DNA of 64,000 nt from Micrococcales bacterium 73-13 (GCA_001898855.1 MKVN01000022.1:9883-73882), one strand, 5' to 3'; shown: positions 48,907-62,917, numbered from the stretch's first letter. Notes: generated by a model from the letters alone, not told the origin. Made by a program: numbers and translations.

Positions 48907-50313
48907 TCAGCGGCGGATGACCGGGCGCAGCGCCGCGAAGCGACGTCCCCGGATCGCCGACCACCACACCCCGGCGCCGTACGCCAGGTCGTCGATCCGG
49001 CGCAGCAGCCCGAACCGCACCGGGTCGAGGTCGGGCTCGAGCCGGACGTACTCGACCGCGGTGTCGGCGACCGCCGCGACGATCGCCGCGGTGCGCACTC
49101 GTCGCGAGCACACCGCGGCGACCAGGGTCGCCGGCCACCAGTGCCGCAGCAGCAGGGCGGAGGTCTGACCCGCCGCCGCGACCAGGCCCTGCCCGGCCAG
49201 TCGCAGCGCGACCGGGCCGGGTCGGCGCACGCCGTCGAGCCGCCGGGCGATCCGACGCGCCGCGATCGCCGTCGCCACCGCCGCGACCGGCAGCGACCAG
49301 CGTCGCTGCGCGAGCAGCGCCGCCATCGTCGCCGCGCTCCACGGCGCGAGCACCGCGGGGGCGATCGCCTCCGGATGGCGCTCCCCCAGCGCGGCGGCGG
49401 AGGTGCCGTAGGAGAACTTCGTCGCGACGAAGGCGCGGAGGCCGGTGCGGTGCTCGTGCGCGACGGCGACCGCCGGCTCGTAGCGCACCCGATGGCCGGC
49501 CGCGACGAGCCGCCAGACCAGGTCGACGTCCTCGCCGACCCGCATCCCGGCGTCGAAGCCCGCGCCGAGCGCCTCGACCCGGCCGACGAGGCAGGTGCTC
49601 GGCACCCAGCCGACGCGGCTGCCCGGCCGCACCGACGCCGCCTCGGCGCCGAGATCGAGGGAGGAGCGCGCCGCCTCGTACCGGGCGACCCAGCCGCCGC
49701 CGGCGTCGAGCGGGACGATCCTCGGCGCGACGAGGGCGACCAGCGGATCCTGGAAGTGCCGCAGCAGCGCGGGGATCGCGCCGGGCCCGAGCACGACGTC
49801 GGAGTCGGCGAACACGACGAACGGCGTCTCGACGTGCGCGAGGCCCAGGTTCCTCGCCGCGGCGGGACCCCGGTTCCGCCGGCTCGCGACGAGGCGCACG
49901 CCGTGCGCGGCGGCGACGCGACGCAGCTCCGCCGGCCGACGGGAGCCGTCGTCGACGACGACGACCCGGTCGGGCGCCGTGTGCGCCGTGAGCGCGACGA
50001 GCAGGCGATCGAGCTGTGGCGCGCGGTCGCGGATCGGCACCACCACGGTGTGATCCGCGTCGAGATCGGGGAGCCGGTCGAGATCGGGGAGCCGGTCGAG
50101 CACGGGGTCCGCGAGACCGGCCTCCAGCAGCCGGTCGGCGAGCACCGCGCCGACCGGCGTCGCGGCGCTGATCCGCCGGCCGTGCAGCGCACGTCGCGCC
50201 TTCGCGGAGAGCCGCAGCAGCCGGGTGGGCGAGCCGCCGATGAGCGCGGCGCCGCCGTCGAGCACCTCGGTGCGCGGTCCGAGCTCGACGAGGAATCCGG
50301 GCGGCAGGCTCAT
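48907..50313 (-). CDS. mftF: Mycofactocin biosynthesis glycosyltransferase MftF
   Basis: 468-aa ORF. GT2 core (VVVPIRDR..., VVVVDDGS, ARNLG, FADSDV) followed by a TM-rich C-terminal region. ATGA overlap with mftE. The call rests on context within a complete mft gene set. Confidence 0.88.
   Translation of the reverse strand: MSLPPGFLVELGPRTEVLDGGAALIGGSPTRLLRLSAKARRALHGRRISAATPVGAVLADRLLEAGLADPVLDRLPDLDRLPDLDADHTVVVPIRDRAPQLDRLLVALTAHTAPDRVVVVDDGSRRPAELRRVAAAHGVRLVASRRNRGPAAARNLGLAHVETPFVVFADSDVVLGPGAIPALLRHFQDPLVALVAPRIVPLDAGGGWVARYEAARSSLDLGAEAASVRPGSRVGWVPSTCLVGRVEALGAGFDAGMRVGEDVDLVWRLVAAGHRVRYEPAVAVAHEHRTGLRAFVATKFSYGTSAAALGERHPEAIAPAVLAPWSAATMAALLAQRRWSLPVAAVATAIAARRIARRLDGVRRPGPVALRLAGQGLVAAAGQTSALLLRHWWPATLVAAVCSRRVRTAAIVAAVADTAVEYVRLEPDLDPVRFGLLRRIDDLAYGAGVWWSAIRGRRFAALRPVIRR
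50059..50100 (-). repeat. Perfect in-frame 18-bp tandem duplication inside mftF
   Basis: GTCGAGATCGGGGAGCCG occurs at 50059-50076 and 50077-50094, followed by a partial third copy GTCGAG. It encodes DRLPDL-DRLPDL. Confidence 0.9.
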
Positions 50314-51002
50314 CCGACGAACCCCCTCGCCCGCTCGGTCGCGCTCGCGACCATGGCGCGCAGGAGCGCGGCGCCCTCCGCGGCGCTCGCACCGGTCGGG
50401 TCGCCGAGCACGCCGTTCGGCGCGACCGCCCGGACGCCCTCCGCGCGCAGCCGCGGCAGCAGCCCGGCGATCGGTTCGACGGCGCCGGGCTCCGCCGCGT
50501 CGAGCGCGACGAGGTCCGGACGCAGCTGGAGCAGCAGCGAGGTCTCGGCGCGGCCGGCGTGCGCGTCCGCGCCCCGCACGCCGCAGGGCAGCCAGGCGGT
50601 GGGCCGGCCCTCGGACTCGAGCAGCGCGACGACCGCGTCGAGGGTCGGCGCGTTCCCGCCGTGGCCGTTGACGAGGAGGGTGCGCGGCGCCCAGGCGCTC
50701 GCCGAGCGGACCAGCTCGACGAGCAGGGCGCGCAGCGCCCCGTGCCCGATCGAGACGGTGCCGGGGAAGCCCTCGTGCTCGCCGCTGGCGCCGTACGGCA
50801 CGGTCGGGCCGAGCACCGCGCCGACCCCGTCCTCGACGAGCGCGGCGACGAGGCGCTCGGCGACCGCCGCGGCGACGATCGCGTCGGTCGCGAGCGGGAG
50901 ATGCGGGCCGTGCTGCTCCGTGGAGCCGACCGGCACGACCAGCAGGTCGACGCCGGCCGCCTCGGGCCAGCGGAGCTCGGCGAGCCGGCGCACCTTCGTC
51001 AC
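50310..51002 (-). CDS. mftE: Mycofactocin precursor peptide peptidase MftE (creatininase family)
   Basis: 230-aa ORF with a GTG start. VVPVGSTEQHGPHLPLATD, GASGEHEGFPGT, VNGHGGN and HAGRAETS (creatininase-family metal ligands). Flanked by mftD and mftF. Confidence 0.9.
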   Translation of the reverse strand: MTKVRRLAELRWPEAAGVDLLVVPVGSTEQHGPHLPLATDAIVAAAVAERLVAALVEDGVGAVLGPTVPYGASGEHEGFPGTVSIGHGALRALLVELVRSASAWAPRTLLVNGHGGNAPTLDAVVALLESEGRPTAWLPCGVRGADAHAGRAETSLLLQLRPDLVALDAAEPGAVEPIAGLLPRLRAEGVRAVAPNGVLGDPTGASAAEGAALLRAMVASATERARGFVG

Positions 51003-51012
51003 CCGGCCGACG

Positions 51013-52248
51013 CTACCCGGCCGCGCGCGCCCGCGGCTTCCGGACGGCGGCCGCGGGCGGCTCGGGCGCGGCGCCGAGCACCCGGCCGAAGTCCGCCGGG
51101 ATGTGGAGATCGTCGGGGCCGAGCTCCGCGATCGACTGGTGCCCGAGGCCGAGCAGCGCGGAGTCGAGGCCCATGCGCAGCAGGTCGAGCACGTTCTCCA
51201 CGCCGGTCTGGCCGTTCGCCGCGAGGCCCCAGAGATAGGCCCGGCCGATCATGACCGCGCGGGCGCCGAGCGCCAGCGCCTTCGCGACGTCGCCGCCGCG
51301 GCGCACGCCGCCGTCGAGGAGCACCTCGATCTGGTCGCCGACACGCGCGGCGACGGCGGGGAGGCAGCGGATCGAGGCGGGGGTCGTGTCGAGGTTGTTC
51401 CCGCCGTGGTTCGACACGGAGACCGCGTCGACGCCGGCGTCGACGGCGCGCAGCGCGTCGTCGATCCGGGTGACGCCCTTGAGCAGCAGCGGACCGCCCC
51501 ACTCCCGCTTGAGCCAGGCGATGTCCTCCCACTGCGGCGGCGGCGTCTGCATCCACTCGTAGTACGCGGCGAAGAACGTCGGGGCGGCCCCGGTCTGCGG
51601 GTCGCGGAGGTTCGGCGCCGTGAGGTCGGGGAGGCCGCCGCCGGTGACGAACCGCCACGCCCAGGGGAGGTGGGTGATCCCCTCCCATTTCATGTCCCAC
51701 ATCGCCTTGAAGCTCATCCGCTCGGGGATCTGCGGGCTGCCCCAGTCGCGGCCGATCGAGAACGACCAGTCCGTCGTGACGATGAGCGCCTTCGCCCCCG
51801 CGGCCCTGGCCCGGTCCATGCGCTGGGCCATCTGCTCGCGGGTGCCCATCCAGTACAGCTGGTAGAAGGTGTTCGGGTTCGCCGCGACGACGTCCTCCAC
51901 CGGCTTCGAGGCGAACGAGGACAGACCCATGATCGTGCCGCGGTTGGCCGCCGCACGGGCCACGGCGACCTCGCCGTCCGGGTGCACCGCCTGCACGCCG
52001 GTCGGCGAGATCAGCACGGGCAGCGAGATCGGGACTCCGAGGACCGTCGTCCCGAGCTGGCGGTCAGGGCGATGCCCGGCGACGTGCGGCGCGAACTGGA
52101 GCTCCGCGAACGCGTTCATGTTGTCCTCGGGCGTGCGCCCGCGCTCGCTGCCGGCCACGAGGGCCGCGTAGACCGACGGCGGCAGGCGGCGCCGGGCCCG
52201 CCGCTGCGCCTCCAGGACGGTCTCGAACCACGGGTTCCGCTTCGCCAC
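51013..52248 (-). CDS. mftD: Pre-mycofactocin synthase MftD (FMN-dependent alpha-hydroxy-acid oxidase family)
   Basis: Start refined to GTG 52248 (VAKRNPWFETVLEAQRRARRRLPPSVY...), with GAGGAG 6 nt upstream. SNHGGNNLD, DGGVRRGGDV, GARAVMIGRAYLWGL. Confidence 0.9.
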   Translation of the reverse strand: MAKRNPWFETVLEAQRRARRRLPPSVYAALVAGSERGRTPEDNMNAFAELQFAPHVAGHRPDRQLGTTVLGVPISLPVLISPTGVQAVHPDGEVAVARAAANRGTIMGLSSFASKPVEDVVAANPNTFYQLYWMGTREQMAQRMDRARAAGAKALIVTTDWSFSIGRDWGSPQIPERMSFKAMWDMKWEGITHLPWAWRFVTGGGLPDLTAPNLRDPQTGAAPTFFAAYYEWMQTPPPQWEDIAWLKREWGGPLLLKGVTRIDDALRAVDAGVDAVSVSNHGGNNLDTTPASIRCLPAVAARVGDQIEVLLDGGVRRGGDVAKALALGARAVMIGRAYLWGLAANGQTGVENVLDLLRMGLDSALLGLGHQSIAELGPDDLHIPADFGRVLGAAPEPPAAAVRKPRARAAG

Positions 52249-52290
52249 GACGACTCCTCTGCTCCAGGGCTTCGTCGAGTCTACGCGGTT

Positions 52291-52311
52291 ATGTGGCACT
52301 CGATGCCACAT
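52291..52311. promoter_or_regulatory. 21-bp perfect palindrome upstream of mftD; candidate second MftR operator
   Basis: ATGTGGCA-CTCGA-TGCCACAT. The core 52294-52308 is the exact reverse complement of 60766-60780 in the mftR/mftA intergenic region. It lies 43 nt upstream of the mftD GTG. A TAGACT -10-like hexamer on the minus strand is at 52278-52283. Confidence 0.6.
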
Positions 52312-52316
52312 TTATC

Positions 52317-53126
52317 TCAGTAGCTGCTCAGACCTCCGTCGACCACGAACGCGCCGCCGGTCGCCCACTTCGACTCGTCCGAGGCGAGGTAGACCATCAG
52401 GTTGGAGATCTCGCTCGGATCGATGAGCCCTGGCATCCACTTCGTGATCATCCCGTAGAGGTTCGGGTTCTCCTCGCGTCCCGGCTCGAAGCCGTCGCGC
52501 GCACCGACGCCCATCGGGGTGTCGACGCTGCCGGGATGCACGGTGTTGACGCGGATCCCGTCCTTGGCCAGCTCCATCGCGAGCGACTTCGCCAGGGCGA
52601 CCACGCCGAACTTCGACACGTTGTAGGCCATGTTGAACGGGCCCGCCTTGAGGCCGTTCGCCGAGCTGGTCATGATGATCGACCCGCCCCCGGCCGCGAG
52701 CAGCCCGTCGACGCCGGCGAGCACGGTGTTGTAGACCCCGGTGAGGTTGACGTCGAGGGTCGTCTGCCAGATCTCCGGGGTCTGCGCGTGCCAGGGACCG
52801 GTGATGTCGATGCCGGCGTTCGCGATGATCACGTCGAGCCGCCCGAGCCGGGCGACCGCGTCCGACACGAAGGCCTTCATCCCGGCGAGGTCGCGCACGT
52901 CGATCGCGCCGGCGACGATCCGGCGGCCGAGCGACTCGACCTGCCGGACCGTCTCCGCGAGCTCCCCGGCCGAGGCGGTCGGGTAGTTCATGTGCTCGAC
53001 CTGCGCCGGCGCGTCGGTCACGATGACGTCCGCGCCCTCCTCGGCCAGACGCACCGCGTGCGCCCGTCCCTGGCCGCGGCCCGCGCCCGTGATGAACGCG
53101 ACCTTGCCCTCCAGCCGACCGGGCAT
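52317..53126 (-). CDS. Mycofactocin-coupled SDR-family oxidoreductase (carveol dehydrogenase-like)
   Basis: Start refined to ATG 53126 (MPGRLEGKVAFITGAGRGQGRAHAVRLAEEGADVI...), overlapping the VOC gene stop (ATGA). The GKVAFITGA-RGQGR-HA N terminus and the NYP-A-ELAETVRQVE-LGRR insert are typical of the mycofactocin-associated SDR subfamily. Catalytic YNVSK. Confidence 0.85.
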   Translation of the reverse strand: MPGRLEGKVAFITGAGRGQGRAHAVRLAEEGADVIVTDAPAQVEHMNYPTASAGELAETVRQVESLGRRIVAGAIDVRDLAGMKAFVSDAVARLGRLDVIIANAGIDITGPWHAQTPEIWQTTLDVNLTGVYNTVLAGVDGLLAAGGGSIIMTSSANGLKAGPFNMAYNVSKFGVVALAKSLAMELAKDGIRVNTVHPGSVDTPMGVGARDGFEPGREENPNLYGMITKWMPGLIDPSEISNLMVYLASDESKWATGGAFVVDGGLSSY

Positions 53127-53632
53127 CACTGCGCGTCCGTGTAGCGCACCAGCTCGAGCTGGTTCCCCCACGGGTCGAGCACGTAGTTGACCTCGATGCC
53201 CGGCCAGGCGCCGGACTCGTCCTCGCCGGCGGGGACCAGGATCGGCTGCGCGGCCTCGGTGCCGCCGTGGGCGAGGATCTGCTCGACGGCCTTCGGGATG
53301 TCGGAGACGACGAAGGCGATGTGGTGCCCGCCGACGTCGTTGTTCCTCGGCGCCGAGGGGTTGCCCGCCGGACGCAGGTACTCGAAGAACTCGATCGGCC
53401 GGCCGTCGCCGAAGCCGACGAACGCGATGTTGTAGAGCGCGTCCGGGACTGCGACGTGCGTGCCGGTCCAGTCCTCGTCGCCCTCGGACATCGCGCGCGA
53501 GTCGAACGGGCCGAGGCGGTAGAGCACGCGGCCGCCGAGGGCCTTCGTGTAGAACTCGATCGCGGCCTCGAGGTCGGGCACGGTGAGCCCGATGTGGTCG
53601 ATGGCTCCGATGAGCGGAGGAGCTGCAGTCAC
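53126..53632 (-). CDS. VOC (glyoxalase/bleomycin resistance/dioxygenase) family protein
   Basis: This is the real part of the 211-aa track ORF. GTG at 53632 (VTAAPPLIGAIDHIGLTVPDLEAAIEFYTKALGG...). HHIAF and DPWGNQLELV. The start codon is uncertain. Confidence 0.75.
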   Translation of the reverse strand: MTAAPPLIGAIDHIGLTVPDLEAAIEFYTKALGGRVLYRLGPFDSRAMSEGDEDWTGTHVAVPDALYNIAFVGFGDGRPIEFFEYLRPAGNPSAPRNNDVGGHHIAFVVSDIPKAVEQILAHGGTEAAQPILVPAGEDESGAWPGIEVNYVLDPWGNQLELVRYTDAQ

Positions 53633-53720
53633 GCGAGTGTCGCCTTTCTCGTCTCGCCGGTCTCGGCAGCGCCGATCGCGGCAGTGACGCCCCCGCGGGT
53701 CCGCGCGGACGATGCCCGCC

Positions 53721-53770
53721 ATGTTACAGGAAGATGACGCAGTGTTCATTTTTCTTGCCAATGTTCATTT
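53721..53770. promoter_or_regulatory. AT-rich control region with three phased (A/G)TGTT(A/C)A repeats between divergent operons
   Basis: ATGTTACA at 53721, GTGTTCAT at 53742 and ATGTTCAT at 53761, spaced 21 and 19 bp apart. The 9-mer TGTTCATTT is exactly repeated at 53743-53751 and 53762-53770. AATGTTCATT is a near-palindrome (AATG/CATT). Confidence 0.4.
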
Positions 53771-53821
53771 ATGCGTCTAGCGTGTCCGCAGCGTCCCGCT
53801 ATCCATCGAAAGGAAGTCCCA

Positions 53822-54811
53822 ATGAAGCGCTCCTTCCAACTGCTCGCGGTCGCGGCCGCGGCGGTGGCCGGCCTGAGCCTGGCCGCATGCTCGTCCGGCG
53901 CCCCGGCGCCGAGCGAGGCCCCGACCTCGACCGAGCCGGCCGTGTCCTACGTGCCGGTCAACGTCGGCGTCGGCTCCGACGCCGGCTACTCGGCCTTCTT
54001 CGTCGCGGACCAGCAGGGTCTGTTCAAGAAGGCCGGCCTCGACGTCACGCTCACCCCGTTCGCCACCGGCGGCGACGCGCTCGCCGCGCTCAGCGCCGGC
54101 CAGATCCAGATGACGCAGAGCTCACCGGCGACGATCACCACGACCATCGCGAACAACCCGAGCATCACCGCCTTCGTCCAGACCGTGGACATCTCGAAGG
54201 TCAACAAGGTGGTCCTGCGCGACGGCATCGAGTCGGCCAAGGACGTGAAGAACTTCGGCTACATCGCCGGGCTCAGCCAGTACATGGCCTACACGTACTT
54301 CGAGGCCAACGGGGTCGACCCCTCGACGATCAACTGGATCGCGGCCGGCGCGGGCGACATGCCCGCCCTGATCCAGCGCGGCGACATCGACGGCTTCTTC
54401 CTGTGGGAGCCCTGGCCGACCAACGTGACCACCGCCGGCGGCGGGCACATCGTGGCGTCCTCGGCGGACTTCCCGGACATGGTGCCCGTCATGGTGAACT
54501 GGGTCGCCTCCACCGACGCCTGGCTCGAGGCCAACGAGCCGACGGCGCAGGCCATCACCAAGGTGCTCGGCGAGGCCATCGACATCATCAACGCCGACCC
54601 GAAGGTCGCCGCGGCCGCGGTGGAGAAGGCCGTCGCGATCAAGGCCGACGACGCCCTCGTCATGGTCGAGCGGCTGAGCTTCGGCCTCAAGCCGATCACG
54701 AGCGACGTCGTCGCCGCGACGCAGAAGATCGGCGACTTCTTCGTGTCCACCGGAGCCATCAAGGCCACCCCGGACCTGAAGAGCGAACTGGTCCTCGACT
54801 GGTCCTGGTAG
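53822..54811 (+). CDS. ABC transporter substrate-binding lipoprotein (NMT1/THI5-like, NitT/TauT family)
   Basis: Start refined to ATG 53822 (MKRSFQLLAVAAAAVAGLSLAAC lipobox), preceded by AGGAAG. The overall pattern resembles aliphatic sulfonate/nitrate/taurine-type binding proteins. Confidence 0.85.
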   Translation: MKRSFQLLAVAAAAVAGLSLAACSSGAPAPSEAPTSTEPAVSYVPVNVGVGSDAGYSAFFVADQQGLFKKAGLDVTLTPFATGGDALAALSAGQIQMTQSSPATITTTIANNPSITAFVQTVDISKVNKVVLRDGIESAKDVKNFGYIAGLSQYMAYTYFEANGVDPSTINWIAAGAGDMPALIQRGDIDGFFLWEPWPTNVTTAGGGHIVASSADFPDMVPVMVNWVASTDAWLEANEPTAQAITKVLGEAIDIINADPKVAAAAVEKAVAIKADDALVMVERLSFGLKPITSDVVAATQKIGDFFVSTGAIKATPDLKSELVLDWSW

Positions 54812-54814
54812 GTC

Positions 54815-55660
54815 ATGTCGTCCACCATCACGAGCGACCGCGATGCCGGGGGACTCCCCGGCATCGCGGTCGCGATGAACTCCGTCGCGATCGCGTTCGG
54901 CGACCTCACCGTGCTGCACGACGTCGACTTCCGGGTGGAGCCCGGCGAGTTCGTCTGCCTGCTCGGGCCGAGCGGCTGCGGCAAGTCGACGCTGCTCGCG
55001 GCGATCGCCGGCTTCGTCGAGCTGTCCGCGGGCGAGGTCGTCTGCAACGACGAGCCGGTCAAGGGCATCAACCGGCATGCCGGCGTCGTCTTCCAGTCCA
55101 GCGAGGCGCTGTTCGAGTGGCTGACCGCCGAGCAGAACGTCGCCTACGGGCCCAGGATGCACGGGAGGGGCAAGCTGGAGAGCCGCCGCGTCGCGGCGGA
55201 CTTCCTCGCGAAGGTCGGCCTCACCCCCGCCGCGAAGAAGTACCCGCGCGAGCTGTCGGGCGGCATGAAGCAGCGCGTGCAGATCGCCCGCGTGCTCGCG
55301 AACGAGCCGCGACTCGTGCTGATGGACGAGCCGTTCGGCGCACTCGACGCGCAGACCCGGCACGTCCTCCAGGAGGAGCTGGTCCGGCTCTGGCAGCGCA
55401 CCGGCTGCAGCATCGTCTTCGTCACCCACGACATCGACGAGTCGGTGATCCTCGCCGACCGGATCGTCGTGATGACCGCCGGCCCGTCGGCGAGGATCAA
55501 GAGCGTCTACCGGGTGGACGCCGCGCGGCCGAGATCGCGGCAGGACGTCGCGGACCTCTACGACCGCATCCAGGAGGACATCCGGGTCGAGGTCGCGCAG
55601 AGCCTGCTGAACCAGGGTCTCGAGATCGACGCCGGCGTCACCGGAGGCGAGGCCCGATGA
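54815..55660 (+). CDS. ABC transporter ATP-binding protein (NitT/TauT family)
   Basis: 281-aa ORF. GPSGCGKST, LSGGMKQRVQIARVL, LVLMDEPFGALD, VFVTHDIDE. Confidence 0.92.
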   Translation: MSSTITSDRDAGGLPGIAVAMNSVAIAFGDLTVLHDVDFRVEPGEFVCLLGPSGCGKSTLLAAIAGFVELSAGEVVCNDEPVKGINRHAGVVFQSSEALFEWLTAEQNVAYGPRMHGRGKLESRRVAADFLAKVGLTPAAKKYPRELSGGMKQRVQIARVLANEPRLVLMDEPFGALDAQTRHVLQEELVRLWQRTGCSIVFVTHDIDESVILADRIVVMTAGPSARIKSVYRVDAARPRSRQDVADLYDRIQEDIRVEVAQSLLNQGLEIDAGVTGGEAR

Positions 55661-56433
55661 GACGTCGCAAGGGGTTCTGGCCCAACCTGCTGAGCACCCT
55701 CGGCACCTGGGCGATCTCCATCACCGTCGGCCTGCTGCTGTGGTGGCTGGCCTCCTCGCTGCTCGGCCCGTACATCATGCCCTCGCCGTGGGCGACGGTG
55801 GTCGGACTCGGCGAGCTCAGCGACCGGGGAACGCTCTGGCCGTCGATCGGCGCCTCGATGTTCCGCATCATCACCGGGTGGACGATCGGCCTGGTGGTCG
55901 GCGCGCCCATCGGCATCCTGATGGGGCGCATCCGGCTGGTCCGCAACTTCCTCGATCCGTACGTCGAGATCCTCCGGTTCATCCCGGCGATCGCGCTCGT
56001 CACGGTCATGGTCGTGTGGTTCGGCATCGGCGAGCAGAGCAAGATCGCGCTCATCGTCTACACCTCGATCTTCGTCGTCGTGATCAGCACCACCGACGCG
56101 ACGCTGCGGATCTCGAACGACAAGGTGCTCGCCGCGCGCAGCCTCGGCGCCGGGAACACCCAGGTGCTCTGGACCGTGGTGCTCCCGTCGGCGGTGCCCG
56201 GCATCATCACCGGCGCACGGCTCGCCATGGCCAACAGCTTCCTGACGATCGTCTCCGCGGAGATGGTCGCCGCGCGCGAGGGCCTCGGCACGATCATCTG
56301 GACCTCGTACAGCTTCGGCCACATCGACTGGATCTTCGCCGGCATCGTGACCCTCGGAATCCTCGGGTTCTGCTGCGACCGCATCCTGCGCATCATCTCG
56401 ACCACGCTGCTCGCCAGGTTCGGCGTGAAATGA
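55657..56433 (+). CDS. ABC transporter permease (NitT/TauT family)
   Basis: This is the real part of the 899-aa track ORF. The ATG at 55657 overlaps the ATPase stop (ATGA). EAA-like loop ARSLGAGNTQVLWTVVLPSAVPGIITGARLA. About 6 TM helices. Confidence 0.88.
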   Translation: MRRRKGFWPNLLSTLGTWAISITVGLLLWWLASSLLGPYIMPSPWATVVGLGELSDRGTLWPSIGASMFRIITGWTIGLVVGAPIGILMGRIRLVRNFLDPYVEILRFIPAIALVTVMVVWFGIGEQSKIALIVYTSIFVVVISTTDATLRISNDKVLAARSLGAGNTQVLWTVVLPSAVPGIITGARLAMANSFLTIVSAEMVAAREGLGTIIWTSYSFGHIDWIFAGIVTLGILGFCCDRILRIISTTLLARFGVK

Positions 56434-56477
56434 CCCCAATGAAGAACGCGATAGCAAGCAAAGGAAATGAGCAACGA

Positions 56478-57059
56478 ATGACGACTGACGAGATCGCCGA
56501 CCTGAAGCACCGCCTGCACGTCCTCGAGTCCGAGGCCGACATCCGCCGGCTGATGGCGCGATACATGTGGCTGTGCGACACCCCGCTGCCGGAGCACCCC
56601 GGCGACCTCGGGCCGCAGGAGCGCATCAGGCTCATCCTCGAGCTGTACTCGAAGGACGCGGTCTGGGAGGGCGTCGGCCCGTTCTACGACGACCAGTTCG
56701 GCTACTCGAAGGGCATGGCGCAGCTCACCGAGCACTTCGAGGGCTTCTTCGCCGGCAAGGGCGAGGGGCAGAACGCGACCTCCGACCTGCTGCTCAACGC
56801 GCACTATCTGACGACCGAGCAGATCCACGTCCACGAGGACGGCACGACCGCCGACGGCCAGTGGATCCACATGCAGCCATGGCTGTTCAGCGATGGCTCC
56901 GCCCTGCTGCGCTCCTCCCGGCTGAACAACGCGTTCAAGATCGAGGACGGCGTCTGGAAGATGTCCCGCTACCGCACGGAGAACGTGTTCGTCGCACCGC
57001 TGCCGGCGTGGTTCGCGTCGAACTACACGGCGAAGTCAGTGCTCACGCAGGTCGATTGA
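56478..57059 (+). CDS. SnoaL-like / NTF2-family protein
   Basis: This is the real part of the 439-aa track ORF. ATG 56478 (MTTDEIADLKHRLHVLESEADIRRLMARYMWLCD) follows the AT-rich AAAGGAAATGAG. ATG 56430, which overlaps the permease stop, is an alternative start. Confidence 0.75.
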   Translation: MTTDEIADLKHRLHVLESEADIRRLMARYMWLCDTPLPEHPGDLGPQERIRLILELYSKDAVWEGVGPFYDDQFGYSKGMAQLTEHFEGFFAGKGEGQNATSDLLLNAHYLTTEQIHVHEDGTTADGQWIHMQPWLFSDGSALLRSSRLNNAFKIEDGVWKMSRYRTENVFVAPLPAWFASNYTAKSVLTQVD

Positions 57060-57072
57060 GCCGGGTCACGCT

Positions 57073-58278
57073 GTGACCCATCAGCCCGGGCGGGCGTCGG
57101 AGCAGGCATTCTCCGACGCCCGCCGGCGCATCGGCGCCGACGAGTTCCATGCCTGGGTCGCGGTCGCCGACCCGGGGCAGGCCGCCGCGTGGCATCCCGG
57201 ACCCGGACCCCTGGAGGGGATCGCGGTGGGCGTGAAGGACGTCATCGACCTCGCCGGGATGCCGACGAGATGCGGCTCGCCCATCACGCTGGACACCCCG
57301 GTCGCGCGGTCCGCGGTGCTCGTCGAGCGGCTCATCGGTCTGGGCGCGATGCCCGTCGGCAAGACCGTGACCACCGAGTTCGCCTTCTTCGCCCCTGGTC
57401 CGACGCAGAATCCGCGAGCACCCGGGCACACCCCGGGCGGGTCCTCGAGCGGCTCGGCCGCCGCGGTCGCGGCCGGGCACGTCCCGCTCGCGCTCGGCAG
57501 CCAGACCGCCGGATCGCTGATCCGGCCCGCCGCGTACTGCGGCGTGGCCGGCCTGGTGCTCCGCCACGACGCGGTGCCGCTGGAGGGCTTCTCCGGACTC
57601 GCCCCCTCGCTCGACGCCGCCGGGCTGATGGCGCCGACCGTCGCCGGGCTGCGCGCCGCGCACGAGGCCCTGTTCCCCGCCCCGCCCCGCCCGAGCCGGG
57701 CGGCGCGGGCGCTCGTCTGGCACGGCGACGACCTCGACGAGGTGTCGCCCGACATGCGCGCCGCGCTCGAGCGCGCGGCGCAGGCCCTGCGGGGGCTCGG
57801 ACTGGATGTCGAGCCGCTCGGGGACGCGCTCCCGATGCGGTCCCTCGCCGCCGATCACCTGACGGTGATGCAGGCCGAGGTCGCTCGCGAGCGTCAGGAC
57901 CTGATGGCCGCCCGCGAGCGCCTGAGCCCTCAGCTGCGCGGACTGCTCGACGCGGGCGCCGCCGTCCCGACGGCGGACTACGCCGCCGCCATCGCGAGGA
58001 CGACGGCGCAGCGCGCCCGGATCGCCGAGCTGCTCGGCGAGGACACCGTGGTCCTCGGCCCGGCCGCCCCGGGCGCCGCGCCCGCAGGGCTCGGGGCCAC
58101 CGGATCCCCCGTGATGAGCCGACCGTGGCAGCTGCTCGGGCTCCCGCAGCTCGCGGTGGCCGGCAGCGTCGACGCGGCCGGGCTCCCGCTCGGGGTGCAG
58201 CTCGTCGCCCGCGGCGGCGCCGAGACGATGCTGCTGACGGCCGGAGAACTCCTGGAGGCTCGCCTTGCCGAGCGCTGA
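57073..58278 (+). CDS. Amidase (amidase-signature family)
   Basis: 401-aa ORF with a GTG start. GVKDVIDLAGMPT (catalytic Lys), GGSSSGSAAAVAAG and GSQTAGSLIRPAAYCG (Ser-cisSer-Lys triad context). Confidence 0.9.
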   Translation: MTHQPGRASEQAFSDARRRIGADEFHAWVAVADPGQAAAWHPGPGPLEGIAVGVKDVIDLAGMPTRCGSPITLDTPVARSAVLVERLIGLGAMPVGKTVTTEFAFFAPGPTQNPRAPGHTPGGSSSGSAAAVAAGHVPLALGSQTAGSLIRPAAYCGVAGLVLRHDAVPLEGFSGLAPSLDAAGLMAPTVAGLRAAHEALFPAPPRPSRAARALVWHGDDLDEVSPDMRAALERAAQALRGLGLDVEPLGDALPMRSLAADHLTVMQAEVARERQDLMAARERLSPQLRGLLDAGAAVPTADYAAAIARTTAQRARIAELLGEDTVVLGPAAPGAAPAGLGATGSPVMSRPWQLLGLPQLAVAGSVDAAGLPLGVQLVARGGAETMLLTAGELLEARLAER

Positions 58279-58327
58279 TCGCCGACGCACTACTCCGGCC
58301 GGCCGTCGGTCGAATACCTTGGGGAGC

Positions 58328-59029
58328 ATGACCGACACGGTGGAAGATCGAACCGACGCCGTGCCCCGCCTCGGCGTACGCGAACGCAAGGCCCACGCGA
58401 CCCGGCGGCGGCTGCTCGCGTCCGCGCTCGACCTCATGGCGCGCGAGGGGACGGACGCCGTCACGGTCCGTGTCGTCGCCGACCACTCGGACATCGCCAC
58501 CGGCACCTTCTACAACTACTTCCCGTCGGCGGAGGCCCTCATCGAGGCCGTCATCGACCTCGAGATCGGCACCATGGGCCGGCGGCTCGACGCCCTGTCG
58601 AACGGCATCGACGATCCGGCCGACGAGCTCTCCGCCGCGCTCCGGCATCTGGTCCGCGCCTCGATCACCGATCCGACCTGGGGCTGGCTGCTCGTGCGGC
58701 TCGGCTCGGAGAGCGAGTGGGTCGCCACCCTGCTCGGCGCACGGCTGGCTCGGACCGTCGAGCGCGGCGCCACGACGGGACGGTTCATCGTCAAGGACGT
58801 GCCCACCGCGACCGCGATGACCCTCGGCGCCCTCGTCGCGGCGACCCGCGTGTTCCTCGATGCGGGTCGTGCGCTCGGCGAGGCCGAGTCGTCCTTCGTG
58901 GAGAACCAGCTGCGCGCACTCGGCATCACGCCGGCCGAGGCGGAGCGGATCGCGAACCGCCGTCTTCCCGAGCTCCCGATCATCGCGGACCAGGGCGCGA
59001 TGTCGATCGTGCGGATCATCGCGCTCTGA
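58328..59029 (+). CDS. TetR-family transcriptional regulator
   Basis: Start refined to ATG 58328 (MTDTVEDRTDAVPRLGVRERKAHATRRRLLASALDLMAREGTDAVTVRVVADHSDIATGTFYNYFPS), preceded by GGGGAG. Typical TetR N-terminal HTH. Confidence 0.88.
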   Translation: MTDTVEDRTDAVPRLGVRERKAHATRRRLLASALDLMAREGTDAVTVRVVADHSDIATGTFYNYFPSAEALIEAVIDLEIGTMGRRLDALSNGIDDPADELSAALRHLVRASITDPTWGWLLVRLGSESEWVATLLGARLARTVERGATTGRFIVKDVPTATAMTLGALVAATRVFLDAGRALGEAESSFVENQLRALGITPAEAERIANRRLPELPIIADQGAMSIVRIIAL

Positions 59030-59060
59030 CGCCGGCCGCGGGCCGCGGGCCGCGAGCGGC

Positions 59061-60323
59061 CTAGACGCGACTGGGCGCGAAGTCCGCGAGCGGGTCGTCC
59101 TGGAGGTCGTTGACCGGCATGCCGCCGTTGCTGATCCGGGCGAGGTTCGGCTTGATGTCCAGGGCCGCGGCGGGGTCGATCGGACGGGTGCCGAGCCGCA
59201 CCGGCACCTTCCCGGACTTCGAGTAGCGGATGGTCCGGTGCGAGTGGTCCTGGCCGGGGCGCGGGTGGCTCGCATCGTCGTCGCGCGCCGCGAGCAGCTC
59301 CTCGCCGTAGCCCTGCACGCACTCGGGGTCGGGGCCGTCGAGCGGGAGCCCGGTGAAGAACTTCGCCGCCATGCAGCCGCCCTTGCAGGTGTCGTAGAAC
59401 TTGCAGGACGAGCAGGCGCCGCCCGACTGGGGCGACCGCAGCCGCTGGAAGAGCTCGGAGCCCTGCCAGACGCGCTGGAAGCCGCCTTCGCCGCGCACAT
59501 TGCCCGCGAGGAACTCCTCGTGGATCGCGAACGGGCAGGCGTAGACGTCGCCGATCGGGTCGATCAGGCAGACCACCCGGCCCGCGCCGCAGAGGTTGAG
59601 CCCCGGCAGCGCCTGGCCGAAGGCCGACAGGTGGAAGAAGGAGTCGCCGGTGAGCACGCCGTCGCCGTGCGCGACGAGCCAGTCGTAGAGGATCCGCTGC
59701 TGCTCGGGCAGCGGGTGCAGCTCGTCCCACACGTCGGCGCCGCGGCCGGAGGGGCGCAGCCGGGTGAGCCGCAGCTGCGCGCCGTAGCGGTCGGCGATCG
59801 CCTTGAACTCGTCGAGCTGCGGGATGTTCTGCCGGGTGCAGACCACGGAGAGCTTGAAGTTCCGCATGCCGGCGGCCTGCAGGTTCTCCATCGCGCGGAT
59901 CGCGGTGTCGTAGGAGCCCGGCCCGCGCACCCAGTCGTTCACCTCGGGCGTCGCGCCGTCGAGCGAGATCTGGATGTCGAGGTAGTCGTTGCGCGCGAGG
60001 CGCTCGGCGACCTCGGGGGTGATCTTCACGCCGTTCGTCGAGAACTTCACCCCGACGTGGTGGCTCGTCGCGTAGTCGACGAGCTCCCAGAAGTCCGAGC
60101 GCACGGTCGGCTCGCCGCCGCCGATGTTCACGTAGAACACCTGCATCCGCTCGAGCTCGTCGATGACCGCCTTGCACTCCTCGGTCGTCAGCTCGCGCGG
60201 ATCCCGGCGGCCGGAGCTCGACAGGCAGTGCACGCAGGAGAGGTTGCAGGCGTAGGTGAGCTCCCAGGTCAGGCAGATCGGGGCGTCGAGGCCGTACTCG
60301 AAGAGGTCGACGAGCCGGCTCAT
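59061..60323 (-). CDS. mftC: Mycofactocin radical SAM maturase MftC (radical SAM/SPASM)
   Basis: 420-aa ORF. CLTWELTYACNLSCVHC (CxxxCxxC) and SPASM cysteines (CGAGRVVC, CPF, CSSCKFYDTCKGGC). ATGA overlap with mftB. Confidence 0.95.
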   Translation of the reverse strand: MSRLVDLFEYGLDAPICLTWELTYACNLSCVHCLSSSGRRDPRELTTEECKAVIDELERMQVFYVNIGGGEPTVRSDFWELVDYATSHHVGVKFSTNGVKITPEVAERLARNDYLDIQISLDGATPEVNDWVRGPGSYDTAIRAMENLQAAGMRNFKLSVVCTRQNIPQLDEFKAIADRYGAQLRLTRLRPSGRGADVWDELHPLPEQQRILYDWLVAHGDGVLTGDSFFHLSAFGQALPGLNLCGAGRVVCLIDPIGDVYACPFAIHEEFLAGNVRGEGGFQRVWQGSELFQRLRSPQSGGACSSCKFYDTCKGGCMAAKFFTGLPLDGPDPECVQGYGEELLAARDDDASHPRPGQDHSHRTIRYSKSGKVPVRLGTRPIDPAAALDIKPNLARISNGGMPVNDLQDDPLADFAPSRV

Positions 60324-60586
60324 GCCGCCCGCTCCACGAGCATCGAGGAGCGCTCGAGCGCCCCGAGCGCGGCCGCGAACCGCGGCAGATCGGCCTCGCC
60401 CACCCCGGCGTCGGCGCAGGCGACCCTGGCCGTCGGCGCCTCGTCGAGGCGCTGGACGACGTCGAGCAGGGCGCGGTCCTTCAGGAAGGAGAGCTTGCGC
60501 GTGCCGAAGTGGTAGACGAGCGCCCCGAAGGGCTCGGGGCGGATCGACACCTGGGGGTGGACCGCCCAGGCTCGGTCGAGATCCAT
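60320..60586 (-). CDS. mftB: Mycofactocin biosynthesis chaperone MftB (RRE-type peptide-binding protein)
   Basis: MDLDRAWAVHPQVSIRPEPFGALVYHFGTRKLSFLKD matches the MftB N terminus as I remember it. The ATG at 60586 is preferred; the track's GTG at 60613 is an alternative start. Confidence 0.88.
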   Translation of the reverse strand: MDLDRAWAVHPQVSIRPEPFGALVYHFGTRKLSFLKDRALLDVVQRLDEAPTARVACADAGVGEADLPRFAAALGALERSSMLVERAA

Positions 60587-60617
60587 GGCGGGAACGCCGG
60601 ACGCGATGGGCACGGCG

Positions 60618-60713
60618 TCAGTAGACGCCGCACATCCCGTCGATCGAGACCTCCTCGACGAGCTCCTCGGCGGTCACGACGTCCTCGACGTCGACGGTCT
60701 GCGTGCTGTCCAT
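60618..60713 (-). CDS. mftA: Mycofactocin precursor peptide MftA
   Basis: Not in the ORF track because it is too short. ATG at 60713-60711 is preceded by GAGGAA 6 nt upstream. Translation: MDSTQTVDVEDVVTAEELVEEVSIDGMCGVY-stop, ending in the canonical IDGMCGVY. The stop is 4 nt before the longest possible mftB start. Confidence 0.93.
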   Translation of the reverse strand: MDSTQTVDVEDVVTAEELVEEVSIDGMCGVY

Positions 60714-60765
60714 GATCGGTTCCTCAGCTTCGAAGTCGGCCACAGCGGGCGGTGAGTACCTAATC

Positions 60766-60780
60766 TGGCATCGAGTGCCA
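60766..60780. promoter_or_regulatory. TGGCA-N5-TGCCA palindrome in the mftR/mftA divergent region; candidate MftR operator
   Basis: TGGCATCGAGTGCCA lies 53-67 nt upstream of the mftA ATG and just upstream of mftR. An identical 15-mer in inverted orientation is at 52294-52308. A TTGGCA -35-like hexamer overlaps it on the mftA strand, and TAATCT (60761-60766) is a -10-like hexamer on the mftR strand. Confidence 0.55.
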
Positions 60781-60800
60781 ATATGCGCAAGTGGAGCACA

Positions 60801-61418
60801 ATGACATCCATGGAACGCTCAGGGGCGCGACCCGGGGAGCCGCGACGGAGCACTCGCGCCGTGACCAGCACCGCCGAGCTGAGTCACATCGGCCTGCGGC
60901 TCTTCCTCGAGCGCGGCTTCGAGGCGACGACGGTCGACGACATCGCGGCCGCGGCCGGCATCGGGCGGCGGACGTTCTTCCGCTACTTCCCGTCGAAGAA
61001 CGACCTCGCCTGGGGCGACTTCGACGCGCTCGTCGCGTCGATGCGCGAGCATCTCGCCGCCACCCCGGCCGAGCTGCCGATGATCGCCGCGCTCCGGGTC
61101 GCCATCGTCGAGTTCAACCGCTTCCCGGTCGAGGAGATCGAGTACCACCGGCAGCGGATGCGGCTCATCCTGAACGCGCCCGCCCTCGTGGGGCACTCGG
61201 CGCTGCGCTATCAGAGCTGGCGCACCGCCATCGCGGAGTTCGTCGCGGCGCGCGCCGGCGGGACCCCGGACGACCTGCTGCCGAGCACCGTCGGCTCCGT
61301 GATGCTGGGGCTCGCGCTCGGCGCCTACGCCTACTGGCTCGCGCATCCCGAGACCGAGCTCGTGACGGCGATCGAGACCGCCTTCGACGAGCTCGGCGCG
61401 GCGTTCGGCGACGCGTGA
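60801..61418 (+). CDS. mftR: Mycofactocin system transcriptional regulator MftR (TetR family)
   Basis: Track ORF 60783-61418. ATG 60801 is preferred (GGAG 4 nt upstream, clear of the palindrome); 60783 and 60810 are alternatives. HTH TTVDDIAAAAGIGRRTFFRYFPSKNDL. Divergent from mftA. Confidence 0.88.
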   Translation: MTSMERSGARPGEPRRSTRAVTSTAELSHIGLRLFLERGFEATTVDDIAAAAGIGRRTFFRYFPSKNDLAWGDFDALVASMREHLAATPAELPMIAALRVAIVEFNRFPVEEIEYHRQRMRLILNAPALVGHSALRYQSWRTAIAEFVAARAGGTPDDLLPSTVGSVMLGLALGAYAYWLAHPETELVTAIETAFDELGAAFGDA

Positions 61419-62917
61419 CCGAGCGGGGCGGGCGCTGGGACGCGATCGTCGTCGGCGCCGGGACGAGCGGCAGCGTCGTGGCGGCGCTGCTCAGCGAGGA
61501 CCCGTCCCGCCGGGTGCTCGTCCTGGAGGCCGGTCCGGTGCCGACGTCCTCGTCGGGGCTGCCCCGCCGGCTGCTCGACGCCGGGCTCGTCCCGGGGGCC
61601 GCGCCCCGGACCGCGGAGACCTCGCGCTACCCGGCGGCGCTGACGCGGGACGGGGGCGCGGACTTCCACGTCACGCGCGGGCGGATGCTCGGCGGGTCCT
61701 CGGCGATCAACGGCGCGGCCTTCGTCCGGCCGCGTCCCGAGGACTTCGCGCGCTGGGCGACGGCGGGACTGCCCTGGGACCACGACACGGCGCTGCCGGC
61801 GATGCGCCGGCTGGAGCGCGACCTCGACCTCGGCGCGAGCGCGCTGCACGGCGACGCGGGGCCGATCCCGGTCCACCGCACGCCGCTCGACCACCCGATC
61901 GGCGCCGCCTTCCGCGACGCCGCGCTCGACGCCGGGCATCCGTGGGAGGCCGACAAGAACGCGCCGGGCGAGCCGGGCATCGGCCCGCTCCCCCGGAACG
62001 TCGAGCACGGGCGCCGCGTCCAGCCCGGCGACGCCTACCTGCTCGCCGCCCGGGACCGGGGGAACCTCGTGATCCTCGGCGAGGCGCCCGTGATCGGGCT
62101 CGCCGTCGACGGCGGGCGCGTGGTCGGCGTCCGGTACGCGGTCGAGGGCGCCGAGGCCATCGCCCGGGCCGACGAGGTGGTGCTCTGCGCCGGGCCCGTC
62201 GAGTCCACGCACCTGCTGCTGCTCGCCGGCATCGGACCGGCCGTGGCGCTGCGCCGGGCCGGCCTGCCGGTGCGCCTCGACGCGCCGGGGGTCGGGACGG
62301 CCTTCGCCGACCACCCCCAGGTCGTCCTCGAGTGGGCGCCGCCGCGGCCCGCCGCCGCCCCGGCCGGCGAGTGGACCGCCGGCGTGCTGCACGCGGGCTC
62401 GGTCGAGCTCCTGCAGGGCGCCAAGCCGCTCGCCGCCCTCGGCGGCGACCGCACCGAGCCGACCGGTCCGCTGCCGCTCCTCGTCACCGATCTCGCACCC
62501 CGCTCGACGGGGCGGCTCGTCCTCGACCCGGCGGACCCGCGGCTCCCGCCGCGCCTCGACTACGGCTACCTCGCCGACGACGCGGCCCGGTGCGCGCTGC
62601 GCGAGGGCGTGCGGCTCGGGCTCGAGCTGATCCGCGCGATGGGCGGGGTGCTCGTCTCCGGTCCGGCCTCGACGAGCGGCCGGGACGTCGACGCCTGGGT
62701 GCGCGCGCACCTCACGACGGCGTTCCACAGCTGCGGGACCGTCCCCATCGGCGGCCCGCTCGACGCGGCCGGCCGCCTCCGCGGGATCGACGGGCTGCGC
62801 GTCGCGGACACCTCGGTCCTCCCGGACGCCCCGAGCCGCGGACCCGCGCTCGCCGCGGTGCTCGTCGGCGAGCTCCTCGGCCGCGGCGGAGCCGCCGCCG
62901 ATCAGCCGCGGACGTAG
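61415..62917 (+). CDS. mftG: Mycofactocin-system GMC-family oxidoreductase MftG
   Basis: This is the real part of the 708-aa track ORF. The GTG at 61415 overlaps the mftR stop (GTGA). DAIVVGAGTSGSVVAALLSEDPSRRVLVLEAGP (FAD fold), GGSSAINGA, and C-terminal HSCGT/VADTSVLP. The MftG assignment rests on context. Confidence 0.82.
   Translation: MTERGGRWDAIVVGAGTSGSVVAALLSEDPSRRVLVLEAGPVPTSSSGLPRRLLDAGLVPGAAPRTAETSRYPAALTRDGGADFHVTRGRMLGGSSAINGAAFVRPRPEDFARWATAGLPWDHDTALPAMRRLERDLDLGASALHGDAGPIPVHRTPLDHPIGAAFRDAALDAGHPWEADKNAPGEPGIGPLPRNVEHGRRVQPGDAYLLAARDRGNLVILGEAPVIGLAVDGGRVVGVRYAVEGAEAIARADEVVLCAGPVESTHLLLLAGIGPAVALRRAGLPVRLDAPGVGTAFADHPQVVLEWAPPRPAAAPAGEWTAGVLHAGSVELLQGAKPLAALGGDRTEPTGPLPLLVTDLAPRSTGRLVLDPADPRLPPRLDYGYLADDAARCALREGVRLGLELIRAMGGVLVSGPASTSGRDVDAWVRAHLTTAFHSCGTVPIGGPLDAAGRLRGIDGLRVADTSVLPDAPSRGPALAAVLVGELLGRGGAAADQPRT

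Follow-up and report, generated by a model that had tools for sequence, protein, structure and literature searches.

The mycofactocin (mft) locus at positions 48,907 to 62,917 of the 64,000-nucleotide stretch from Micrococcales bacterium 73-13 (GCA_001898855.1, MKVN01000022.1:9883-73882; the whole stretch is referred to below as the window) is split by a gene island and probably represents a functional mycofactocin system in separate transcription units controlled together by one repressor, MftR. This reading rests on an exact repetition: the window contains exactly two copies of the 15-mer TGGCACTCGATGCCA, at 52294-52308 and 60766-60780, that is, before mftD and before mftA, and both copies match 15 of the 15 bases of the core of the MftR operator of M. 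smegmatis. An earlier sequence-only reading of the window had held that the split separates the peptide-modification steps (MftB/C) from the late steps (MftE/D/F); as regards regulation, this is contradicted by the identical operator core in front of both blocks. The mft genes and the two putative operators are listed below in the order of their coordinates.

48907..50313, minus strand: mftF, mycofactocin glycosyltransferase, 468 amino acids (aa); TIGR03965, 422.5 bits against a cut-off of 280; overlaps mftE by 4 nucleotides (nt)
50310..51002, minus strand: mftE, creatininase-family peptidase, 230 aa; TIGR03964, 286.7 bits against a cut-off of 172
51013..52248, minus strand: mftD, pre-mycofactocin synthase, 411 aa, GTG start; TIGR03966, 649.5 bits against a cut-off of 470.85
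52289..52313 (core 52294-52308), no strand assigned: putative MftR operator copy 2, 46-60 bp upstream of the mftD GTG, inside the gap between mftD and an SDR gene; 22.1 bits with the weight matrix described below
59061..60323, minus strand: mftC, radical SAM/SPASM maturase, 420 aa; TIGR03962, 653.6 bits against a cut-off of 265
60320..60586 (open reading frame reaching 60613), minus strand: mftB, chaperone or recognition element for RiPPs (peptides made on the ribosome and modified after translation), 88 aa; TIGR03967, 106.7 bits against a cut-off of 33
60618..60713, minus strand: mftA, precursor peptide ending in VSIDGMCGVY, 31 aa; TIGR03969, 44.9 bits against a cut-off of 25
60761..60785 (core 60766-60780), no strand assigned: putative MftR operator copy 1, 53-67 bp upstream of mftA, in the gap between the divergent mftA and mftR; 23.7 bits with the same matrix
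60861..61418, plus strand: mftR, TetR-family repressor, 185 aa (public call); TIGR03968, 253.2 bits against a cut-off of 224.9
61415..62917, plus strand: mftG, GMC-family mycofactocin dehydrogenase, 500 aa; TIGR03970, 412.9 bits against a cut-off of 387.45

Open reading frames at these coordinates were scored against the NCBIfam equivalog models with their curated cut-offs, and this hidden Markov model check bore out all eight mft assignments, each lying above the cut-off of its model. Judged by the definition of a mycofactocin system used for the membership tests (Haft 2011, PMC3023750), the locus is a bona fide one, every defining feature that sequence can test being present, and production of glycosylated mycofactocin is predicted. 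MftA ends in the invariant Cys-Gly-Val-Tyr demanded by the definition, and the universal markers are found as well, mftB adjoining mftC with an overlap of 4 nt and mftF lying 8.7 kb from mftC. MftC carries the motifs CxxxCxxC at C26/C30/C33 and C-x2-C-x5-C-x3-C at C304/307/313/317, and MftD, MftE, MftR, and MftG are each encoded in a single copy within the window. Public annotation agrees with the mftD gene call, and a Shine-Dalgarno-like AGAGGAG is located just 5' of the GTG. The GTGA overlap said to join mftR and mftG is seen in the sequence. For mftR itself the end at 61418 stood, while the proposed start at 60801 held only in part, being one of four in-frame candidates (ATG 60783, which abuts the operator, ATG 60801, ATG 60810, and GTG 60861). 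The start at 60861 is favoured, in view of the public call and of the distance of about 70-90 bp between the site and the aligned mftR in relatives. The host is a Microbacteriaceae-like actinobacterium, uncultured and known from metagenomes alone.

The MftR operator of M. smegmatis, Omft, is the palindrome T-N2-GGCA-N5-TGCC-N2-A located 5' of mftA; its DNase I footprint extends from -79 to -53 relative to mftA and comprises the 27-mer TCCATTCTGGCACTCGATGCCATATAT, and the binding of MftR to it is specific and relieved by long-chain acyl-CoA (Mendauletova & Latham, PMC8728441). In the window the repetition was first seen as the palindrome TGTGGCATCGAGTGCCACA in the 68-bp gap between the SDR gene and mftD, which has a 15-mer in common with the gap between mftA and mftR. 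The core of copy 1 reads TGGCACTCGATGCCA on the mftA-sense strand, oriented as it is in M. smegmatis and at a position comparable to that of the footprint. Copy 2 fits the full palindrome as TGTGGCA-N5-TGCCACA and is followed, in the direction of mftD, by TAGACT, a -10-like hexamer at 52283-52278, and then by the AGAGGAG mentioned above. This arrangement suggests a promoter of mftD at copy 2 and, together with an MftR that scores above its equivalog cut-off and with the conservation of the site in relatives, binding of MftR to both sites in this organism.

The distribution of such sites was surveyed with a position weight matrix (PWM) built from 36 pattern-matched sites in the mft loci of 80 relatives, the window being left out. 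In the window the PWM found the two sites only, nothing else reaching 6 bits. In the relatives about 75 matches scored at least 10 bits, all of them intergenic and next to mftA/B, mftR, mftG, a detached mftD or mftC, or SDR genes, and 1.48 Mb of shuffled sequence yielded one match at this threshold. Upstream of mftD, at a distance of up to 250 bp, a site was present in none of the 34 loci in which mftD is contiguous with mftC, against 12 of 34 loci in which it is detached (Fisher p = 1.5e-4, without phylogenetic correction); the mftD-proximal operator is linked to detached mftD. The held-out loci L089-L093 and L099, which did not contribute to the PWM, have sites before both mftA and mftD, and in L099 the site lies between an SDR gene and mftD, as it does in the window. 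Compostimonas suwonensis DSM 25625, a cultured relative, also has a junction with a site between SDR and mftD.

These data also bear on the possibility that the duplicated 15-mer is no working operator but a chance repeat or a remnant of rearrangement, e.g., a recombination scar. Both copies do adjoin boundaries of the rearranged blocks, and recombination through a short palindrome is conceivable. An exact pair of 15-mers is, however, not expected in 64 kb, and the sequence equals the footprinted operator of a distant genus. Moreover, diverged copies at the same positions in relatives still fit the PWM, which points to selection and not to a recent scar, and there are no sites upstream of mftD wherever it directly follows mftC. 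A chance or scar origin is accordingly given little credence.

High-scoring operator-like sites were also observed upstream of mycofactocin-type SDR genes (L026 14354-14378; L033 14293-14317; L018 5926-5950; L020 5145-5169; L081 9051-9075), and in several genera the dehydrogenases that depend on the cofactor may be under direct control by MftR. A limited literature search found nothing on an MftR regulon beyond mftA.

The physical split was described correctly from the outset. The separation of mftC and mftD by 6.8 kb is real and is reproduced in independent assemblies; the two genes are separated by eight others (52317-59029, 6.7 kb), two on the minus strand (SDR and VOC) and six on the opposite, plus strand, and the convergent stops of mftC and of the island's TetR gene are 31 bp apart, as measured. 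With this layout of opposite-strand genes confirmed, transcription of mftABC and mftDEF as a single unit is impossible. A hairpin of -32 kcal/mol in the 31-bp gap was considered as a terminator and rejected, its z of -1.2 being ordinary for the composition; a terminator scan likewise returned a count equal to that in shuffled sequence.

The window comes from a metagenome assembly, and its raw GC content dips across 52-57 kb, features that an artefact of assembly or binning, with the island wrongly joined between the real halves of an mft locus, would share. Such an artefact is nevertheless exceedingly improbable. The window matches a 111-kb contig of the metagenome assembly ERZ778028, and both junctions, near 52250 and 59045, where an assembly error had been suspected, recur in independent assemblies from other samples, the one between mftC and TetR in L002-L006 and the one between SDR and mftD in L007. 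Contig L002 (Logan SRR5487615_50758) extends from mftG through mftC, TetR, amidase, SnoaL, and permease into the ATPase gene, and L007 (ENA ERZ27263116 k141_264598) from SnoaL through SBP, VOC, SDR, mftD, and mftE to mftF; the proteins encoded by both are identical to those of the window. Furthermore, the GC content at third codon positions (GC3) is uniform, 0.92-0.99 in every gene, the decrease of raw GC to 0.65-0.70 across the island stemming from codon positions 1 and 2. Dating of the insertion by composition, as had been proposed, was attempted, and the uniform GC3 gave no sign of recent foreign origin.

The island comprises the following genes and one control region.

52317..53126, minus strand: SDR, mycofactocin-coupled oxidoreductase, 269 aa, adjoining mftD; TIGR03971, 311.3 bits, a narrow margin over the cut-off of 300
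53126..53632, minus strand: VOC/glyoxalase-family protein, 168 aa, heading the minus-strand arm; PF00903 and PF13669
53633..53821, no strand assigned: divergent control region between VOC and SBP, AT-richer, as read from the sequence
53822..54811, plus strand: NMT1/SsuA-type ABC substrate-binding protein (SBP), 329 aa; PF13379 and PF09084, TIGR01728 below its cut-off
54815..55660, plus strand: ABC ATPase, 281 aa; PF00005, NCBIfam nitrate/taurine-type ATPase families below their cut-offs
55657..56433, plus strand: ABC permease, 258 aa; PF00528
56478..57059, plus strand: SnoaL_4/NTF2-family protein, 193 aa; PF13577
57073..58278, plus strand: amidase of the amidase-signature family, 401 aa; PF01425, 177 bits
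58328..59029, plus strand: island TetR with TetR_N and TetR_C_40, 233 aa, convergent with mftC

These genes had been called unrelated. On the contrary, they form one conserved island that is found elsewhere as a unit and that includes a mycofactocin-coupled SDR, whose start overlaps the VOC stop (TGATG). The cassette, with VOC divergent from SBP-ATPase-permease-SnoaL-amidase-TetR, recurs without mft genes in L094-L098. Homologs of SnoaL are widespread (about 60-89% identity); those in L094, L095, and L098 are 76-89% identical and lie in the same cassette in unrelated contexts, and VOC orthologs in L094, L096, and L098 are 68-79% identical. The closest copy, L096, also holds the VOC-SDR pair, with an SDR 75% identical to that of the window, and its TetR side abuts a SpoU-like gene. 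Since the same cassette occurs in unrelated contexts devoid of mft genes, the eight genes must have travelled together, and the insert is a single pre-existing, self-contained eight-gene catabolic island. Genes of mycofactocin-type dehydrogenases tend to be found within mft loci or close by (Haft 2011, PMC3023750), a tendency with which the island SDR agrees; this enzyme is predicted to use mycofactocin, holding a non-exchangeable NAD that mycofactocin would re-oxidise.

None of the 80 genome loci has the island genes near mft, and no sister species with the island in its mft locus was found among the closest MftC relatives examined. As the island occurs at an mft locus only in contigs with 100% identical MftC, its insertion looks species-specific. 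The control region between VOC and SBP contains the direct repeat TGTTCATTT at 53743-53751 and 53762-53770, the copies being 10 bp apart, and the TetR (TetR_C_40) encoded in the island may bind to this repeat. The island TetR was itself considered as MftR and rejected, scoring only 32.5 bits with TIGR03968 against the cut-off of 224.9.

The gene order of relatives was surveyed by an MftD-anchored scan with one genome per GTDB species, which gave the 80 loci referred to above, the proteins of the window being mapped onto each. Sixty-nine loci could be classified, the other 11 being too short: mftC and mftD are contiguous in 34, lie on the same strand 1.9-9 kb apart in 21, and have another order or orientation in one, and in 13 loci mftD is present with no mftC within the flanks. 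The two genes are thus non-contiguous in 35 of the 69. The closest MftD loci are those of Microbacteriaceae, with Gryllotalpicola kribbensis (81%) followed by Microbacterium, Leucobacter, Compostimonas, and Cryobacterium. Rearrangement is seen in every one of the seven closest MftC relatives examined (85-87% identity), each permutation being different, and in several of them a gene of the opposite strand lies between the blocks. The permutations include those given below, with slashes between the blocks.

mftG / mftABC-flavodoxin / mftR / AAA-VWA-mftDEF
mftR / mftD-X-mftE / mftG / mftABC
mftF-mftR / mftDE-AAA-VWA / mftG / mftABC
mftG / mftABC / mftR / SDR-SDR-AAA-VWA-SDR-mftD
mftA(B)C-SDR-mftD

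The split, which the sequence-only reading had presented as a departure from a contiguous norm, is by these counts nothing of the kind. The closest relatives are permuted, often with a gene of the opposite strand between the blocks, so that mftABC and mftD(EF) are as a rule transcribed separately in this clade, and the window adds another gene order to a lineage in which reshuffling is common. The same reading had allowed that the split might prove to be both common and already described in this lineage; the former is the case, but a limited literature search found no publication describing split mft loci.

In Microbacteriaceae-type loci the gap between mftC and mftD is occupied by an array of one to six co-directional SDR genes of the mycofactocin type, and after these, directly before mftD, come the genes for an AAA+ ATPase of the MoxR type and for a VWA protein. 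The pair of MoxR-type AAA+ ATPase (PF07728/PF07726) and VWA protein (PF13519/VWA_CoxE), neither of which is a named mft gene, is present inside about 21 of the 80 mft loci and in most of the closest relatives, usually directly 5' of mftD, e.g., at the following positions.

L009, 8026-9957: AAA+/VWA pair
L016, 7977-9959: AAA+/VWA pair
L089, 12856-14736: AAA+/VWA pair
L092, 6212-8098: AAA+/VWA pair
L099, 8740-10617: AAA+/VWA pair

Homologs of neither protein were found in the 64-kb window, and the limited literature search found no paper linking mycofactocin with MoxR/VWA; the pair may belong to mycofactocin systems as an accessory component that has so far escaped recognition.

Rearrangements of other kinds were also encountered. 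Rhodococcus loci (L054 10001-12318, L060 10001-12348, L064 9992-12324, and also L043, L053, and L071) have a tandem duplicate mftD, 68-70% identical to the query, and in the same loci mftE-mftF(-mftG) lie 4-8 kb downstream of mftD, which constitutes an mftD/mftE split. In Nesterenkonia haasae (L049, 8524-13499 and 16369-17549) mftCDEF are about 3 kb from mftR-mftA-mftB, the break falling between mftB and mftC, with operator-like sites before mftC (28.4 bits) and before mftA (27.8 bits). Streptomyces avicenniae (L016) and Streptomyces sp. CBMA29 (L025) show the Microbacteriaceae-type layout of mftABC, SDR array, AAA-VWA, and mftDEF, most Streptomyces loci being contiguous, and this layout suggests that whole mft loci moved horizontally between orders. 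Finally, a metagenome-assembled genome labelled Candidatus Melainabacteria (L037) carries an mft cluster of actinobacterial type in which mftD and mftF are each present twice, with an MftD 70% identical to the query; this mismatch with a label of cyanobacterial lineage may reflect mis-binning, mislabelling, or transfer.

With the island and the relatives taken into account, joint control by MftR can be outlined as follows. One unit would comprise mftABC and the divergent mftR-mftG, with a common control region and one MftR operator; the other would comprise mftDEF, with its own copy of the operator overlapping the likely promoter in the 68-bp gap. MftR would repress both promoters through the identical operator cores, and the early and late maturation steps would stay co-regulated despite the physical split. 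The island would have lodged at the mftC-mftD junction, which appears to be a hot spot in Microbacteriaceae-type loci for rearrangement and for the accumulation of mycofactocin-dependent dehydrogenase genes.

The locus could alternatively be uncoupled, with MftB/C under MftR and MftE/D/F expressed together with the VOC-SDR operon under the island TetR and its substrate. The genes VOC-SDR-mftD-mftE-mftF are co-directional, with only 68 bp and no recognisable terminator between SDR and mftD, and VOC-SDR diverge from the operon that contains TetR. It is the exact copy of the MftR operator between SDR and mftD that makes such an uncoupling unlikely: island copies outside mft loci (L094-L098) have no operator sites, from which it follows that the operator belongs to mftD and not to the island; operators close to mftD are found again in relatives irrespective of what precedes them; and a repressor bound in the gap would also block read-through. 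The proposal that mftD is co-transcribed with SDR and VOC or started just after them thus survives in its second part, the operator and TAGACT in the gap supporting a start just after SDR, with read-through from VOC-SDR as a possible contribution. A mixed model, in which this read-through is added to an MftR-controlled mftD promoter, is possible.

Several observations weigh against joint control by MftR. No terminator is evident in the 68-bp gap, so VOC-SDR transcripts may read through into mftD, and a scan for consensus promoters gave nothing useful in this high-GC DNA (70-78% GC), with one promoter-like match inside the TetR gene. In copy 1 the last, outer position of the palindrome is off, with T instead of A. 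The 36 seed sites of the PWM were chosen by the authors from strict pattern matches, which makes the specificity in the 80 loci partly circular, the window and L089-L099 being independent of that choice. About two thirds of the loci with detached mftD have no operator within 250 bp of it; some have a site upstream of the preceding SDR instead, and others none at all, so the second operator is frequent but not obligatory.

A broader, more tentative proposal is that in lineages with a detached mftD the late module led by it carries its own MftR operator, so that the system would be a modular MftR regulon and not a single operon. In the window this module is also located downstream of a TetR-controlled VOC-SDR operon, and late maturation could receive dual input, from MftR and from read-through driven by the amide substrate of the island.

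The mycobacterial cluster (M. smegmatis MSMEG_1420-1428; M. tuberculosis Rv0691c-Rv0696; PMC3023750) contains the same eight families, mftR, A, B, C, D, E, F, and G, and as in the window its MftA ends in IDGMCGVY and its mftR is divergent from mftA; the operator core is identical and is about as far upstream of mftA (PMC8728441). The window differs in that mftABCDEF are not contiguous, mftDEF lying 6.8 kb off behind an opposite-strand cassette, in the pairing of mftG with mftR (the mycobacterial mftG follows mftF), and in the second operator copy before mftD. It is closer in plan to the split loci of the Microbacteriaceae type (Gryllotalpicola kribbensis L009, Compostimonas suwonensis L012, Agromyces L031, Microbacterium marinilacus L047, Gryllotalpicola sp. 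L089, and Microbacterium sp. X-17 L091), in which mftABC and mftD(EF) are likewise separate blocks, 2-9 kb apart or re-ordered, with mycofactocin-type SDR genes between or beside them, mftG or mftR divergent from mftA, and operator-like sites often before both blocks. Whereas those loci usually have an array of one to six SDR genes and AAA+/VWA before mftD, the window has a single SDR and no AAA+/VWA pair, and carries the VOC, ABC importer-SnoaL-amidase-TetR island, which is at mft in none of the 80 loci. The island copies L094-L098 have the same gene order and orientation as the island of the window, with 58-89% protein identity gene by gene, but are located next to a SpoU-like methyltransferase, a DUF485/SSF transporter, or Tad pilus genes, with no mft genes or MftR-type sites nearby.

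The locus reveals no new kind of system, being a rearranged member of a known one, and what appears modestly new is only the operator repeated before a detached mftD, together with a base-perfect mycobacterial core in a Microbacteriaceae-like host. The mycobacterial gene order is unfit as a template for mycofactocin loci, and annotation tools demanding an unbroken mftABCDEF would, in Microbacteriaceae, overlook the system or return it in pieces, about half of the surveyed loci being split or permuted. The experimentally defined MftR operator appears to be conserved to the base far outside the mycobacteria and repeated before the detached mftD, and by this operator rule MftR regulons, including operons of mycofactocin-dependent dehydrogenases, would be predictable from sequence alone.

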